Assembly: GCA_963695545.1 (NCBI GenBank)
Contig: OY968796.1
Coordinates: 512,001-576,000, forward strand
Direction of reading: 5' to 3'
DNA: 64,000 nt
Source of the DNA: Terriglobia bacterium
GTDB taxonomy: Bacteria; Acidobacteriota; Terriglobia; Acidiferrales; UBA7541
Both the position numbers and the translations under genes were made by a program. Every line of letters begins with the position of its first letter. Positions within the stretch are counted from its first letter, which is position 1. Shown here piece after piece: positions 2,733-45,220 of this stretch. Below the pieces are notes generated by a model. The model made no database searches. It was not told the origin of the DNA and saw only the letters and a list, made by a program, of their open reading frames with translations.

Positions 2733-3056
2733 CTACGCTCGCCGAGCCTTCACGTCCGCCACGCGAATGATAACGCGCTTTCCAAGCGCCTTGGCTGCCC
2801 GAGTGATTGTGTCGAGAGTTACGGAAACGTTCCGAGGATCCAGCAGGCGATCCAGTTGCGACCGGCTCGTGCGAAGCTGCCTTGCCATGGCCTGCTTGGT
2901 TTTTTGTTGCGCTCGCATGGCTTGCGATAACTGCCAAGCCAGCACCCGCTTGATAGCGACGGCCTCGACTTCCTCGCGGATCCCTTCCTCTTCGAGAAAA
3001 CTGTCGAATGTCGAACCACTGTGAGTCGTTCTCTTACGATCCTTCCGAGCGCTCAT
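2733..3056 (-). CDS. XRE/HigA-like HTH antitoxin
   Basis: HSGSTFDSFLEEEGI...MARQLRTSRSQLDRLLDPRN...TLDTI HTH pattern; 4-nt overlap with the upstream toxin gene. Confidence 0.85.
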   Translation of the reverse strand: MSARKDRKRTTHSGSTFDSFLEEEGIREEVEAVAIKRVLAWQLSQAMRAQQKTKQAMARQLRTSRSQLDRLLDPRNVSVTLDTITRAAKALGKRVIIRVADVKARRA

Positions 3057-3469
3057 GGCAGTCCCCTTTGATGCTTCTTCTTGTTGGCTCTTGCCTGCTC
3101 TAAGTCTTCGTCCGGGGTCTTCTGTGTCTTCTTGATGAATCCGTGCAGCAAGACCATCCGGTCTTTCTTGTCGATATAGAAAAGGACCCGCGCAATCCGA
3201 TTTTGCATGAGCCTGGTCCGCACTTCATAAATGCCTTCGCCCAACGGTCTGCATGCGGGCATCCCCACCGGCCAGCCGAACTCGACCGCCTTGATATCCT
3301 CGCCAATCCGCTTCCGATCCTCGACCGAGGGAAGCCCCCTCAGCCAATCCCGCAGCGGCTCGCCGCCCGCCCCAGTCCGAAAAAAGATCGCAGGAACCCG
3401 TTTCCCTTGCTTTGCAAGCGTTTCTGTCCAGGCGCCCGTCTCCGCCGGAGATCTGGGTTTCCTGCCCAT
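3053..3469 (-). CDS. RelE/HigB-like (Gp49/DUF891-type) toxin
   Basis: GWPVGMPACRPLGEGIYEVR...RVLF...VLLHGFIKKTQKTP signature; start taken as ATG 3469, 6 nt after TG-n-TACGCT (likely leaderless). Confidence 0.88.
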   Translation of the reverse strand: MGRKPRSPAETGAWTETLAKQGKRVPAIFFRTGAGGEPLRDWLRGLPSVEDRKRIGEDIKAVEFGWPVGMPACRPLGEGIYEVRTRLMQNRIARVLFYIDKKDRMVLLHGFIKKTQKTPDEDLEQARANKKKHQRGLP

Positions 3470-3478
3470 ATAACAAGC

Positions 3479-3494: not shown

Positions 3495-3645
3495 ACCTTG
3501 CGCGTGAAGTTCCCTTGCCGGATGTCTCATTCTTGCGCGCGGAGCAAGAGCGGGGATTTTTCCAGCCGCCATCGCCGCGAACGCCCGCGGCTCCCCCTCA
3601 GGTAGGCGCGCATCTCGTTGTCCGAACTGGACTTCGCCTCCCGCC

Positions 3646-4060
3646 ATTCGAAAGAATTCCCACAGCCTATTCGAATAACCCACACGTTATTGTTGACATA
3701 AGCGGCATAGACATGCTATCGTTGTACATGAATTTCAGGGGCCCACATTCGCCCTCGTTTTTCCCACCGGCATCCCCAGAGAAACTCGCGCGCACGAATT
3801 TTCGATGTGCACTGCCCGAGCCTCTCTCCGCCCGTCGTGCATGGCCTTCCCACCATAATCGGATCGTTGCGACCGATGCGCATTCACTGCTGCCAAACCC
3901 CCTCTCCAAACCTTTTATTTTCAGCGAATTAAAAAAGAGTGCGCATCTCGCTCATAATAAACATCTTTATCACCTTTTCTTTTCACACTCATCCGCACTC
4001 TTTCGCCGCAAGTCCTGTATTTGCCGCACTTACGCAAAACATACCCGGGGTGTATATACT
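3646..4060 (+). repeat. Dispersed promoter/leader/repeat element, copy A
   Basis: TTCGAA 3647 and 3670; TTGACA 3693-3698, N18, TATCGT 3717-3722, N5, ATG 3728; stem AAAGAGTGCG 3934-3943 / CGCACTCTTT 3994-4003; AAGT-N14-ACTT 4010-4031; CCCGGGGTGTATATA end. A 24-bp block is identical to 43218-43241. Confidence 0.85.
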
Positions 4061-4288
4061 CGTTTTGTCCTCAATCCGTCCGCCGACCACCGCCAAAACG
4101 CCGAAGGCCCGCAAAATCAGCGAGTTCGCGCAATTTTGAATGAAACACATCGGAATCTTGCGGGCTCGGCCGAGTGCATCGCCCGCGCGCTGAGTGCTAG
4201 CATGGATTGTGGAGGAAAGTCTTCCGATGCCACGACGCCGGCTAGACAACACTCGAACAATGCCAGGATTAGGACCTGGCGGTTATGA
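3728..4288 (+). CDS. Putative leaderless leader ORF inside element copy A (186 aa, may not be a functional protein)
   Basis: Open from ATG 3728 to TGA 4288, which overlaps the HAD gene start (ATGA); shares SKPFIFS-x-L-x-KSA with the copy C ORF. Confidence 0.3.
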   Translation: MNFRGPHSPSFFPPASPEKLARTNFRCALPEPLSARRAWPSHHNRIVATDAHSLLPNPLSKPFIFSELKKSAHLAHNKHLYHLFFSHSSALFRRKSCICRTYAKHTRGVYTRFVLNPSADHRQNAEGPQNQRVRAILNETHRNLAGSAECIARALSASMDCGGKSSDATTPARQHSNNARIRTWRL

Positions 4289-8393: not shown

Positions 8394-8481
8394 TGGTGCC
8401 CGGGGTGGGGGTCGAACCCACACGACGCGTTAGCGTCAGGGGATTTTAAGTCCCCCGCGTATGCCATTCCGCCACCCGGGC
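8394..8481 (-). tRNA. tRNA-Leu, anticodon TAA
   Basis: GCCCGGGTGGCGGAATGGCATACGCG-GGGGA-CTTAAAA-TCCCC-long variable arm-GTGGGTTCGACCCCCAC-CCCGGGC-ACCA; acceptor stem, T loop and encoded CCA present. Confidence 0.97.
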
Positions 8482-11513: not shown

Positions 11514-11810
11514 TCACCACACCTTCCGAAGATTCCGAAGTCCCTCGAGATAATCGTCCGTTTCCAACCTGTTCGTAACTCCAAATTCCGTCAGAATCGT
11601 CATCATCTGCCCGACAGGCAGCCCTGCCAAATCAGCCGCTTTCCCCAGCGACGCTTCGCCCGCTTTATATCGTTCCACCGCCAGCAGCATTCTTCCCCGA
11701 GTGACCAGGTCGCGCACCGCTTTCGACAAGTCGCTCCGTTCTTCCTTGCTGATCTCGCTCAAAAACTCGTAATTGTCCTGATCCATTCGGATGCTCATCG
11801 TTTTACTCAT
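11514..11810 (-). CDS. UPF0175-like antitoxin with N-terminal RHH-like segment
   Basis: MSKTMSIRMD...SKAVRDL, then YKAGEASLGKAADLAGL; 4-nt overlap with the PIN gene. Confidence 0.75.
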   Translation of the reverse strand: MSKTMSIRMDQDNYEFLSEISKEERSDLSKAVRDLVTRGRMLLAVERYKAGEASLGKAADLAGLPVGQMMTILTEFGVTNRLETDDYLEGLRNLRKVW

Positions 11811-12310
11811 GGATTCGCCTCCAACCTGACCTTCGCATCTTCAATTATGGAAGCCTTGTAACGCCCGTATCTTGCCAGCACCGCCAGTTTGGCCATCGCA
11901 CTCTCAGGGCCCAATAGTCCCTTCTCTCTGCTCCGAATCAGAATGCCTATCGCGGTCGTGAACGCAATTCTCACAACCTTGCACGCATTGATTCCATTCT
12001 TGTCATCAACGGCCAGGAGTTGGGCCCTCTCATGGAGCGCAACTGCGATTGCCTCGGCCTCACCCTTGCCGAGGCCGAAATCCGCCTGCAACTTACGGAC
12101 CAGCCTCCGATCCTTCACAGCCACCACTCTGATTCTTGACTCATCCAAAGCCTTCCGAATTACCAATCCATCCAACGTTTTCTTCGACCCGCAACACTCC
12201 CGCTCCACTTCGGCTGGAATAACAAACCCGAGTTTGCCGTCCGCCAGGAACAGGTCGAGCAACTCGGCCTTCGCTGTCAGAATCAGCGTAGATGCGTCGA
12301 GAACAATCAT
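11807..12310 (-). CDS. PIN-domain (DUF3368-like) toxin
   Basis: MIVLDASTLI, IPAEVERE, LGKGEAEAIA, LAVDD acidic PIN motifs. Confidence 0.85.
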   Translation of the reverse strand: MIVLDASTLILTAKAELLDLFLADGKLGFVIPAEVERECCGSKKTLDGLVIRKALDESRIRVVAVKDRRLVRKLQADFGLGKGEAEAIAVALHERAQLLAVDDKNGINACKVVRIAFTTAIGILIRSREKGLLGPESAMAKLAVLARYGRYKASIIEDAKVRLEANP

Positions 12311-12408: not shown

Positions 12409-12730
12409 TTCGAATGGCGATCCACAGGAAACGTATTCGAACTGTGGATTTCTGTTCGAATGGCTTAATAATTATATTGACAGTGTAGTACTCTACGTGC
12501 TATGCTCCCGCATGACCATCGAACGGCACTTCCCGCCCGCAGATTCCTCGGTGAAGGACGGCCGATTCGCGCTACGCCGCGCCGGTCTTTTTCACGTCTC
12601 GCCCCGCAACCCTTCCAGAATCAACACTTCTGAAAAATCGCGTTTTAACCCCAGTAGAATCAACACTTCTGGCGCAAAGGACTTAAAGTTCAATCATTTC
12701 AACACTTCTGAAAAACACCCCGGGGGTAGG
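12409..12730 (+). repeat. Dispersed promoter/leader/repeat element, copy B, with three 39-bp units
   Basis: TTCGAA 12409, 12436, 12455; TTGACA 12477-12482, N18, TATGCT 12501-12506, N5, ATG 12512; TCAACACTTCTG at 12621, 12660, 12699; CCCCGGGGGT end. Confidence 0.85.
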
Positions 12731-12781
12731 GGGGTGCGCCCTCCCCGACGAATCGATTTTTTGAATGAAAGGAGCCTATGA
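12512..12781 (+). CDS. Putative leaderless leader ORF in element copy B (89 aa, NPSRINTS repeats)
   Basis: Open through the 13-codon repeats; its stop overlaps the next ATG (ATGA 12778-12781). Confidence 0.35.
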   Translation: MTIERHFPPADSSVKDGRFALRRAGLFHVSPRNPSRINTSEKSRFNPSRINTSGAKDLKFNHFNTSEKHPGGRGVRPPRRIDFLNERSL

Positions 12782-13278
12782 ACATGAAAACCAAGACCGC
12801 ACGGAAATCAGCAAGCCGCAACATCGCAAGGAACCCGCAGAAGCTCGCCGAAAGCGCCATGTCCGACGCGCGCTGTAAATTCAAGTTCGCCGACGCGCGC
12901 TCCTGCGGCATACCACGCTGGAAAGGCCATGCCTCTTACTGCCTCTTCCACGCCCGCCAGGAACAGCAGCTTCTCGATGCCGATCGCGTCGGCACGGAAC
13001 TCGCCAGTCTCTCCGGCGAATTTCGCACAACCACCGATCTCAATCACGCCCTCGGCAAACTTTTCGCCGCCGTCGCCCAGAATCGTATTCCTCCGCGCAA
13101 CGCCGCCGTGATCGCCTACATCGGTCAACTCCTGATGCAAAGCCTCTCTGGCGTAGAGCGAGAGATCAAACACGCCGACGGCTACGAAGCCTGGGACGAC
13201 ACCATCCGCCGCACTCTCGACGCTGAAGAAAACGAGGAGGAAGAAGAGGACGACGACGAGGCGGGTGATGGCAAGTAA
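12778..13278 (+). CDS. Hypothetical protein with C-x9-C-x11-C-x2-H zinc-finger-like motif and acidic tail
   Basis: CKFKFADARSCGIPRWKGHASYCLFH; basic N-terminus; EEEEEDDDE C-terminus; AAAGGAG SD. Confidence 0.8.
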   Translation: MNMKTKTARKSASRNIARNPQKLAESAMSDARCKFKFADARSCGIPRWKGHASYCLFHARQEQQLLDADRVGTELASLSGEFRTTTDLNHALGKLFAAVAQNRIPPRNAAVIAYIGQLLMQSLSGVEREIKHADGYEAWDDTIRRTLDAEENEEEEEDDDEAGDGK

Positions 13279-43175: not shown

Positions 43176-43194
43176 CCTCATCCATCTTCCACAA

Positions 43195-43600
43195 TTCGAA
43201 TGAATTTCCACAGCCCTCTATTCGAATAACCCACACGTTATCATTGACATGTACGCCAAAAGCGTGCTACCGTTGCACATGACTTGCGAACGCACATCGG
43301 CACCGCTGAAAACTCCGCTTGCGCTGTGCCCCGGCATGAGTTTTCCGCATATAGAGGAGGAGGTTGCCTCCACCCGCATTACCCCGCCGGCCAAATATCG
43401 TCGATACAACTCGATCAATCCTCACTCTTCTGCATCAAAGTGCCCCTCCAAACCATTTATTTTCAGTCTCTTGCAAAAGAGTGCGCAACTGATTGAATAC
43501 AATCGCTTTCATCCACTTTATTTTCACACTCATGCGCACTCTTTCGCTGGAACTCCTTTGTTTACATCATTTTACACTTTTGGTACCGGGGGTATATATA
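43195..43600 (+). repeat. Dispersed promoter/leader/repeat element, copy C
   Basis: TTCGAA 43195 and 43221; TTGACA 43244-43249, N18, TACCGT 43268-43273, N5, ATG 43279; stem AAAGAGTGCGCA 43476-43487 / TGCGCACTCTTT 43533-43544; ACCGGGGGTATATATA end. Confidence 0.85.
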
Positions 43601-43725
43601 GGGCCCCCTCCGCTGCGCCTTGCCGTGCACAGCAACGCCGTGCTACACCGAAGGCGATTCTTCCTCGGCGCATCCGGTATCCTGCATCGAACACTTCGAG
43701 AGGCACTCCATGGCTGACGCCATAG
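43279..43725 (+). CDS. Putative leaderless leader ORF in element copy C (148 aa)
   Basis: Open through the element; stop lies 16 nt into the next gene. Confidence 0.3.
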   Translation: MTCERTSAPLKTPLALCPGMSFPHIEEEVASTRITPPAKYRRYNSINPHSSASKCPSKPFIFSLLQKSAQLIEYNRFHPLYFHTHAHSFAGTPLFTSFYTFGTGGIYRAPSAAPCRAQQRRATPKAILPRRIRYPASNTSRGTPWLTP

Positions 43726-44111: not shown

Positions 44112-45220
44112 GTGAGCAACTGCCGGAGCTATCACAACCGACGAGCACCAGCCCCGTAGGGGCGGCACATTTTAGCCTAGGGCGGAAGCCCTGGGTACGC
44201 CGCAAGAAATCGCGAAAGCCCCGTAGGGGCGACACAAAAGCGACGCAAACTACGCCGATCGCGCTTCAAGAAAATCGCTGGGCCCGTCGATTGATCCTCC
44301 CTCTCATCGCCTTGCTCTTCGCCGCGACCTCCGCATCCGCGCAAACCGCGCCGCCCGCCGGCGCCGACGTCGCCGCCACTCTCACCGGCGCGCTCTCCGC
44401 CGCATGCAAAGAAGACGACGCCGCATTCGCGCCGTTTCTCACTTCCGAAAATTCCACCGCGTTTCAAAATCTCGTCGGTCCGCAACGCATCGCGTTCATG
44501 AAACGTATCGTTCAGCTCGACGACGCCGGACATCCCTTGATTTCAACCAGCGATGACGGTCTGACGGTACTGCGCTGCGAAACTCCCGCGGTCACTACCG
44601 AAATGCGCTTTGGCCCAACGAAAGCCAGCGACAACTTGGCCTTCATCGCCGTGACTGTGCCCAGTCCAGGCGAAGATCCGCGCACGATTCGTTTCGGCCT
44701 GGTGCGCGAGCAAGGCCAATGGAAACTCCTCTCGCTTGGTCTTGTGCTGCTCGACGTGCAGGCGCTCTCCGACGAATGGGCCCACGCCGATATCGAATCG
44801 ATGGAAAACGACGCGGTCGATAATCTGCGCCAAATCGCAACCGCGCTTGACGCCTACCGCACCGCATTCGGCCAGTTGCCGGACTCGCTCGCACAGCTCG
44901 GCCCCGCGCCGCCCGGCGGAATTTCTCCGGATATGGCCAGCCTCGTTGACGCCGATCTTGCCTCCGGCGAAACGGGTGGCTACAAATTCCGCTACCGCAT
45001 CGTGCCATCCGCCAGCGCCACCACACCCGAGGATCAGAACAAACTCGCCGGCTACGAAATCGCCGCCACTCCGATCGCCTACGGCAAAACCGCCAAGCGC
45101 TCCTTCTTCCTCGATTCCTCCGGCGCCCTGCGCGGCGCCGATAAGAAAGGCGAAGTCGCCGGCCCCGAAGATCCGCGCATCGACGCCGGCACGGACACGC
45201 AATCGCCGCCGCAGCCCTGA
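44108..45220 (+). CDS. Secreted protein with pilin-like C-terminal region
   Basis: Signal segment LILPLIALLFAATSASA-Q; AVDNLRQIATA...LASGETGGYKF...YGKTAKRSFFLDSSG; ATGA coupling to the upstream gene. Start uncertain. Confidence 0.7.
   Translation: MSEQLPELSQPTSTSPVGAAHFSLGRKPWVRRKKSRKPRRGDTKATQTTPIALQENRWARRLILPLIALLFAATSASAQTAPPAGADVAATLTGALSAACKEDDAAFAPFLTSENSTAFQNLVGPQRIAFMKRIVQLDDAGHPLISTSDDGLTVLRCETPAVTTEMRFGPTKASDNLAFIAVTVPSPGEDPRTIRFGLVREQGQWKLLSLGLVLLDVQALSDEWAHADIESMENDAVDNLRQIATALDAYRTAFGQLPDSLAQLGPAPPGGISPDMASLVDADLASGETGGYKFRYRIVPSASATTPEDQNKLAGYEIAATPIAYGKTAKRSFFLDSSGALRGADKKGEVAGPEDPRIDAGTDTQSPPQP
44150..44236. repeat. REP-like palindromic element
   Basis: AGCCCCGTAGGGGCG(G/A)CACA at 44150 and 44217 flanking hairpin CCTAGGGC-GGAA-GCCCTGGG. 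Confidence 0.8.

Follow-up and report, generated by a model that had tools for sequence, protein, structure and literature searches.

A predicted zinc-knuckle protein coupled to one subtype of a dispersed chromosomal element in an Acidiferrales genome: possible kinship with DNA packaging

The packaging of host DNA by gene transfer agents is regarded as nearly random, and to our knowledge site-specific redirection of packaging is known only for single satellites, SaPI TerS being one of the redirectors. In Bartonella, the gene transfer agent BaGTA has a packaging module joined to a run-off replication origin. Small terminases combine an N-terminal DNA-binding part with a helical hairpin and end in a segment that binds the large terminase (PMC9611059, PMC6854486), and their gene usually lies just upstream of that of the large terminase (PMC6854486). 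The same papers describe the RcGTA small terminase as devoid of the DNA-binding N-terminus, RcGTA packaging as random and its binding sites as not known (PMC9611059, PMC6854486). Redirection of packaging through a hetero-complex with the small terminase is described for Rpp (PMC6739421), and GpsA/B offer a precedent for such hetero-complex redirection (10.1101/2024.04.22.590561).

The gene considered here lies in a window of 64,000 nucleotides, the whole stretch of DNA that was analysed, corresponding to C1:512001-576000 of a single 4,159,512-bp contig. The sequencing runs that contain this DNA are soil metagenomes, four of them with all of it, and may be its source; none of the runs listed is an RNA data set. 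It follows copy B of an element that occurs in two further copies, A and C, within the window, and the features referred to below are, in window coordinates:

3640..4062, + strand: element copy A, AC subtype, without a family gene
12409..12460, no strand: three TTCGAA palindromes (12409, 12436, 12455), upstream of the promoter
12477..12506, + strand: sigma-70-type promoter TTGACA-18-TATGCT with extended -10 (10/12 matches; same module in other copies)
12512..12781, + strand: leaderless leader ORF (89 codons) that spans the repeats, with a TGA overlapping the ATG of the gene (ATGA)
12617..12709, + strand: three B-type direct repeats, core TCAACACTTCT at 12621, 12660 and 12699, 39-nt period
12718..12735, + strand: G-box, the end of the element
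12770..12774, + strand: ribosome binding site AGGAG
12778..13278, + strand: zinc-knuckle/helical-hairpin gene, clade II (tail-less), start possibly at 12784
12874..12951, + strand: predicted zinc knuckle C33-x9-C43-x11-C55-x2-H58 (alignment, AlphaFold2)
13030..13179, + strand: predicted helical hairpin, residues 85-134, common to the tailed paralogues (AlphaFold2, profile)
13180..13275, + strand: clade-II helix (136-148) and acidic low-complexity end, replacing a terminase-type tail
43190..43605, + strand: element copy C, AC subtype, without a family gene

Iterated profiles recover 112 element copies in the genome, some of them partial, of which 90 belong to the AC subtype and 22 to the B subtype, and copies A and C of the window share with B only the promoter module and the G-box. 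TTCGAA is found at most 90 nt upstream of the -35 box in 84 of 93 promoter-matched copies as compared to 0.9% of random windows, and the palindromes are likely the site of a regulator. A start codon follows the -10 box by 3-7 nt in 82 of 85 copies, and the leader frame stays open to the G-box in 74 of 82, the other two frames doing so in 7 and 10. The repeats of the element are AT-rich, and those of the B type are likely binding sites. A structured leader RNA was considered and rejected, with no Rfam match at the element and a folding z of 0.69, no better than shuffles. The literature searched, including that on Acidiferrales repeats, gives no description of either the element or the protein. 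In two other B-type copies (G000 C1:247699, - strand, and 343586, + strand), genes that we take to resemble IS1595-type transposases interrupt the element ahead of the G-box. Element B spans about 350 nt plus the gene, without satellite-like integrase or replication genes, and is flanked by tartrate dehydrogenase and a pair of small genes. The latter pair (11514-12310, - strand, just upstream of B) consists of overlapping genes for a 98-aa UPF0175 protein (E 4e-9) and for a 167-aa protein that matches no family and is presumably PIN-like; it likely represents a toxin-antitoxin pair and is absent at the B site in both same-genus genomes. A pair of similar kind, RelE/HigB-like and helix-turn-helix-like by appearance, lies upstream of copy A (3056-3470, - strand), and Rfam furthermore places an Acido-Lenti-1 RNA at 44150-44195 and a tRNA at 8397-8481 of the window.

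The open reading frame at 12778-13278 (+) encodes 166 residues and is a real gene, as its knuckle is conserved and it is under selection. An earlier note made from the sequence had pointed to a basic N-terminus, a C-x9-C-x11-C-x2-H pattern, a helical core and an acidic tail, and the first three of these are borne out: residues 1-32 carry a net charge of +6, the ligands are C33, C43, C55 and H58 with the exact 9-11-2 spacing kept in 187 of 228 homologues, and AlphaFold2 predicts helices at 56-74, 85-100, 106-134 and 136-148, the second and third forming the hairpin 85-134. The acidic tail is present in the 166-aa protein (net -12 over residues 147-166) but is no family trait, since runs of at least five D/E residues occur in just 18 of the 228 homologues. 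Among 60 aligned homologues C55 and H58 are invariant and C33 and C43 at least 90% conserved, and the knuckle is the confident part of the model (pLDDT 93-94 for residues 31-60, as compared to a pLDDT of 72.5 and a pTM of 0.44 for the whole protein). The modelled hairpin may be the oligomerisation core; a profile of it finds all four paralogues of the genome at E 1e-11 or better and nothing else below 0.5, and nothing else in the genome matches the clade-II C-terminal helix. AGGAG precedes the first ATG by 3 nt and the second (12784) by 9 nt, the database protein P0001 begins at the second Met, and this may be the working start.

Compared with three close relatives, the gene has a dN/dS ratio of 0.21-0.36. 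Of 12 pairs, 11 stay at or below 0.37 and show purifying selection, the remaining pair giving 1.2. There are 82 close homologues and, at 50% identity, 1,332 clusters, the named homologues coming from Candidatus Acidiferrales/Acidoferrum. Pfam, PHROGs and NCBIfam provide no name for the protein, for 59 aligned homologues (scattered weak hits only) or for the paralogues, and no transposase or integrase family is matched by any of them, in keeping with what had been seen by eye. Fold searches of PDB and BFVD likewise returned nothing at E 0.001, the best VIA match being a generic hairpin (Z 6.4, rmsd 3.1, 54 aligned). Longer fused forms of the protein were not found in what is a weak test, and phage records, viral contigs and viral collections contained no family member.

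The gene had also been proposed to be coupled to its element, and this holds well beyond copy B. All four family paralogues of the genome start 27-58 nt behind an element G-box, the remaining 108 element copies being without a family gene, and the gene-less kin of B are the 21 other B-type copies. Elsewhere, a repeat block lies beside the gene on the same strand, at most 500 nt upstream or 700 nt downstream, at 60-64 of 104 distinct foreign loci, with 2-3 in the antisense control and 0-1 in the shuffled control; the evaluable loci remain from 125 distinct ones after removal of 4 own and 17 short-flank loci. The repeat detector was trained position-blind on the tested loci, and since the linkage count climbed as the detector broadened (8/71, 20/65 and 48/88 with earlier narrower profiles) the final count is model-dependent. 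Regex detectors were discarded as too insensitive, recovering 9-28 of the 112 copies. At 40-44 of the 104 loci there is no nearby repeat block, 12 of them having one 0.7-2.7 kb downstream, and the detector misses diverged copies, including one of the own genome. With four copies here and up to 14 matches per genome the family is multi-copy, and together with this linkage it is therefore neither single-copy nor unassociated with the element. That homologues should consistently follow the repeat is however true only as far as the association goes; the order varies, with the block upstream at 29-32 foreign loci, downstream at 30-31 and on both sides at 1, and the gene therefore sits either between promoter and repeats or behind the element.

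A promoter is present at most 800 nt upstream at 70 of 102 gene loci, compared with 5 in antisense and 12 downstream. Leader starts are found in 36 of the 74 foreign loci with a promoter match, and the overlap between leader stop and gene start noted for the window recurs as ATGA in 10 of these 36, another 8 being fused in frame. A clade II subgroup of 30 rows (L012, L013, L019, L023, L025-L028 and kin) has a promoter, then a leader with hairpin and T-run, then the gene, so that a terminator-like leader stands in place of the repeats; the 12 loci with distant downstream repeats are of this L012-type, and as these repeats are on the same strand, the element there encloses further DNA. At L054 and L058 a second, knuckle-less hairpin ORF directly follows the gene and is itself followed by repeats.

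In a quick tree of 112 rows, midpoint-rooted and sampled mostly through clade II queries, the family falls into two clades separated at SH-aLRT 98: clade I has 29 rows, among them the other three paralogues, and clade II has 83, among them the 166-aa protein. Within clade I there is a tail-less subgroup (L148, L155, L157, L159, L161-L165, L168), many members of which have a conserved PDPTKKPS-like end. Three proteins that likewise follow B-like repeats cluster with the 166-aa protein, and a B-like unit is found beside 23 of 48 clade II genes compared with 0 of 20 clade I genes. Protein distance furthermore tracks repeat distance with a rho of 0.42 over 68 loci (permutation maximum 0.13, relatedness not removed). 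In the genome itself a B copy carries the one clade II gene and AC copies carry the three of clade I, and A and C are therefore no derivatives of B, contrary to the earlier suggestion that they are gene-less offshoots of it.

That suggestion was part of a notion in which B is an autonomous mobile-element copy, with the protein as its mobilising factor and A and C as derivatives. Indeed orthologues flank B repeats among differing neighbour genes in three same-genus genomes, and the upstream flanks of the gene turn over fast, as would be expected of a mobile unit. The protein however has no catalytic motif or family of this kind, both same-genus genomes (G346 and G372) retain copy C in the corresponding position, A and C are of another subtype, the even spacing of copies (see below) speaks against random insertion, and the gene precedes the repeats as often as it follows them. 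It is consequently doubtful that copy B is a complete mobile unit, and we hold a mobilising function to be very unlikely. A second notion, that of a redundant copy which has lost its tail and decays without a role of its own, draws on the fact that the B site has only a 3' gene remnant in G346 and no part of the gene in G372, as well as on a copy number that varies from 1 to 14. In G346 the remnant (C60, L259, ~2630-2760) is upstream of tartrate dehydrogenase, the element and the 5' part having been replaced by another gene. Both relatives nonetheless keep an intact orthologue elsewhere, again behind B repeats, tail-less clade II is the larger clade in a sample taken mostly with clade II queries, and dN/dS is about 0.2; selection already makes a decaying copy unlikely, and taken together we give this notion hardly any credence.

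A link to packaging comes from the other paralogues. The only PF03237 match in the genome is a large terminase at C1:3.40 Mb, clustered with a major head protein, the zinc-knuckle gene being at C1:0.52 Mb. The packaging cluster carries a 92-aa gene, in this genome ~9 kb downstream of the large terminase. In 10 of 11 other genomes its homologues precede the large terminase by 0.2-1.3 kb, and in 9 of 80 viral-database loci (E <1e-5) they directly precede it; none of these 80 has a zinc-knuckle family gene beside the terminase. It is a feature of the source genus that the small-terminase-like gene does not adjoin the terminase, and at C1:3400048-3401225 (L110) of the genome a transposase pair, IS3-like by appearance, lies between the portal-like and major head genes of the cluster. 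The 92-aa protein is predicted to have three helices and an unstructured tail, and fold searches with it likewise gave no match of note, the best Z being 4.7 and four DUF5681 rows (E 3.5-6.5) being too weak to count. The tail of this putative small terminase also ends the three other paralogues: in a six-frame search of the genome with a profile of small-terminase-position genes alone, these rank 2nd to 4th by the tail alone (E 0.017, 0.11 and 1.3), while the tails match profile to profile with 94% probability, E 1.4e-7 and 13 of 15 residues identical. A motif of the tail, chosen post hoc, occurs exactly four times in the genome with 0.1 expected, namely in the 92-aa gene and the three paralogues, and similar tails end the terminase-upstream gene in three other genera. 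By profile score the tail is present in 12 of 32 proteins found with clade I queries and in 0 of 336 (228 + 108) found with clade II queries, the 166-aa protein included. Outside the tail there is no homology between the family hairpin and the 92-aa protein, and comparing whole profiles with the 92-aa family yielded no match for clade II. Having no tail itself, the 166-aa protein is tied to packaging solely through its relatives.

Tentatively, we favour a reading in which the 166-aa protein is the B-specific DNA-binding subunit of a packaging apparatus, reaching the terminase only via tailed partners or competing with them. The 92-aa gene would encode a small terminase without DNA-binding domain, as in RcGTA, and the family would supply the missing specificity from outside the cluster, the knuckle reading the repeats, the hairpin oligomerising and the tail docking onto the large terminase, so that the elements would be programmed start points for packaging of host DNA. 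The strong promoter and open leader ORF with its stop/start overlap may yield the protein by translational coupling, and the single clade-II gene would then serve the 21 gene-less B-type copies in trans, its product binding B repeats as an oligomer and steering the terminase through mixed oligomers, or else competing. With the same reserve, the protein possibly works like a packaging redirector, yet none of the tests run places it among small terminases, redirectors, CCCH fingers or transposases. Counting against this packaging reading are the missing tail, the tail-less subgroup within clade I, the lack of homology between hairpin and 92-aa protein outside the tail, the absence of family members from phage and viral collections, the loci without a nearby repeat block and the gene-bearing genomes without the terminase described below. 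Moreover, linkage alone could produce the co-variation of protein and repeats, and packaging does not by itself explain the GC skew.

The distribution of the family is patchy. Of 201 genomes of the order, 78 contain it, each with between 1 and 14 matches; it occurs in 49 of 61 genomes of genus g190 and 0 of 64 of genus g192, and in 2 of 301 genomes drawn across the phylum; these tallies take in the unpublished G492, on which alone no claim rests. The conserved terminase is present in 131 of the 201 genomes, including 88 of the 123 gene-less ones, and absent from 35 of the 78 gene-bearing ones, which amounts to a slight negative association across the order (p 0.02, kin not being independent). 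The terminase-less genomes include four with clade I genes that are also without any PF03237 match. Among five gene-bearing, terminase-less genomes tested, four lack PF03237 and none shows a capsid gene in a search without positive control. G360, which has the gene and lacks the conserved cluster, has a different, weak terminase match (C1:3120804-3121133, L171). Within g190, and in favour of the packaging reading, the gene is present wherever the terminase is (27 genomes), and the terminase is missing from all 12 gene-less genomes. The B-type 17-mer is found in 42 of the 201 genomes, 39 of them gene-bearing, and in g190 the gene is present in 32 of 34 genomes with the 17-mer compared with 17 of 27 without it.

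The elements are spaced more evenly than random (CV 0.58 vs 0.99, with 0 of 2,000 random sets as low) and are accompanied by switches in base composition. Strand-corrected GC skew at fourfold sites has a value of -0.27 immediately upstream of elements, changes sign ~3-6 kb downstream of them and reaches +0.14 at a distance of 9-12 kb (null sd 0.02), the downstream value being +0.25 for B copies and +0.12 for AC copies. In 400-kb samples of one or two genomes per class, G385, with gene and terminase, has 8 elements and the same oriented skew, gene-bearing genomes with the terminase have 7-8 elements, gene-bearing G360 without it has 1 and a long-range skew, and two gene-less genomes have no elements and no short-period skew oscillation over 400 kb each. 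Since the elements mark strong, origin-like skew flips, the main rival to a packaging role is that the protein is an initiator or loader of local replication at a transcription-primed (R-loop) origin made up of promoter, AT-rich repeats and G-tract. It would bind the repeats or an RNA-DNA hybrid and recruit host replication proteins by way of its C-terminal helix and acidic end, and the tailed paralogues would couple the amplified DNA to packaging. Besides the flips, the even spacing and the recurrence of the oriented skew in G385 but not in the two gene-less genomes, this is in agreement with primer formation driven by a G-tract, known from mitochondrial CSB II (PMC3488243). However, no family of initiators, primases or helicases is matched by the protein (7 of 60 members give a weak primase-zinc-finger hit, best E 0.009), the skew switches kilobases beyond the element, and the only specific homology of the family points to terminase. 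The skew is furthermore as strong at AC and gene-less copies and therefore does not single out the 166-aa protein. An origin explains the skew better and the tail worse than packaging does, and the two are combinable; on its own, we regard a replication function as possible but somewhat unlikely.

Immediately downstream of elements, coding DNA tends to lie on the same strand as the element (+0.34), and with the promoters found upstream of so many of the genes this would suit a regulator of element transcription or translation, binding TTCGAA boxes or repeat RNA and tuning the promoter for downstream host genes. The prevalence of TTCGAA among the copies, the probable translational coupling to the leader and the terminator-like leader of one clade-II subgroup are likewise in favour of such a function. 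It is nevertheless decidedly unlikely in our judgement, since TTCGAA does not vary with protein clade while the repeats do, since the leader RNA folds no better than shuffles, and since the terminase tail of clade I, the even spacing and the skew would all be left without a reason.

Joining packaging and local replication leads to a wider proposal, which is doubtful: Acidiferrales may run a programmable gene transfer agent, made up of a tamed phage cluster, a small terminase without DNA-reading domain, and a varied set of zinc-knuckle adaptors with their genes on ~110 evenly spaced chromosomal sites that double as local origins. Each clade would read its own repeats, the tailed members loading the terminase and the tail-less ones setting which subtype fires, and with clade-specific adaptors and a choice of sites the host would thereby choose where its chromosome is amplified and shipped. 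The host belongs to one of the commonest uncultured soil groups, and the skew flips raise the question of whether a bacterial chromosome can use ~100 local origins. The protein-repeat pairs are short, co-vary and are testable in vitro without culturing the host, and the presence of tail-less and tailed versions in one genome constitutes a built-in control.

The nearest clusters with a name, by language-model features, are those with the zinc-knuckle family DUF5763 (PF19067), a weak lead at 0.81 and 0.84, below the bar of 0.9; the domain is carried by 46% and 19% of the members of these two clusters, TM is below 0.5, the PF19067 Pfam model does not hit the gene, and the literature searched gives DUF5763 no described function. 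Classical CCCH fingers of the tristetraprolin type have the spacing C-x8-C-x5-C-x3-H. The earlier designation of the protein as a CCCH zinc finger is right as to the order of ligands, three cysteines and then a histidine, but a classical finger was rejected, the spacing being 9-11-2, the finger single and zf-CCCH of Pfam unmatched in 60 members. The plan proposed for the family, of N-terminal module, predicted hairpin and C-terminal segment, would resemble that of RcGTA gp1 and phage small terminases (PMC6854486, PMC9611059), the hairpin having only generic fold matches, and the resident 92-aa gene resembles GTA small terminases in being short, three-helical and, in relatives, upstream of the large terminase. 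In contrast to phage and GTA small terminases, however, the family has a predicted zinc knuckle instead of a helix-turn-helix and is multi-copy, located on dispersed elements far from the terminase, and the 166-aa protein lacks the tail. With Rpp of Gram-negative PICIs and with PLE Gpi/GpsA/GpsB the family would share that a small protein encoded beside its target alters the DNA from which a terminase starts (PMC6739421, 10.1101/2024.04.22.590561), although the searches brought up no relation to them in sequence or fold. Satellite redirectors however serve one island with its own integrase and origin, whereas here there are ~110 chromosomal sites, most of them gene-less. BaGTA is similar in that a tamed phage packaging module is joined to a chromosomal site behaving as a local origin, but it has one origin, as opposed to more than 100 candidate sites here with promoter, open leader and G-box. 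If the proposal is true, a chromosome that has start sites of its own all along it, together with interchangeable adaptor genes, would represent a third design.
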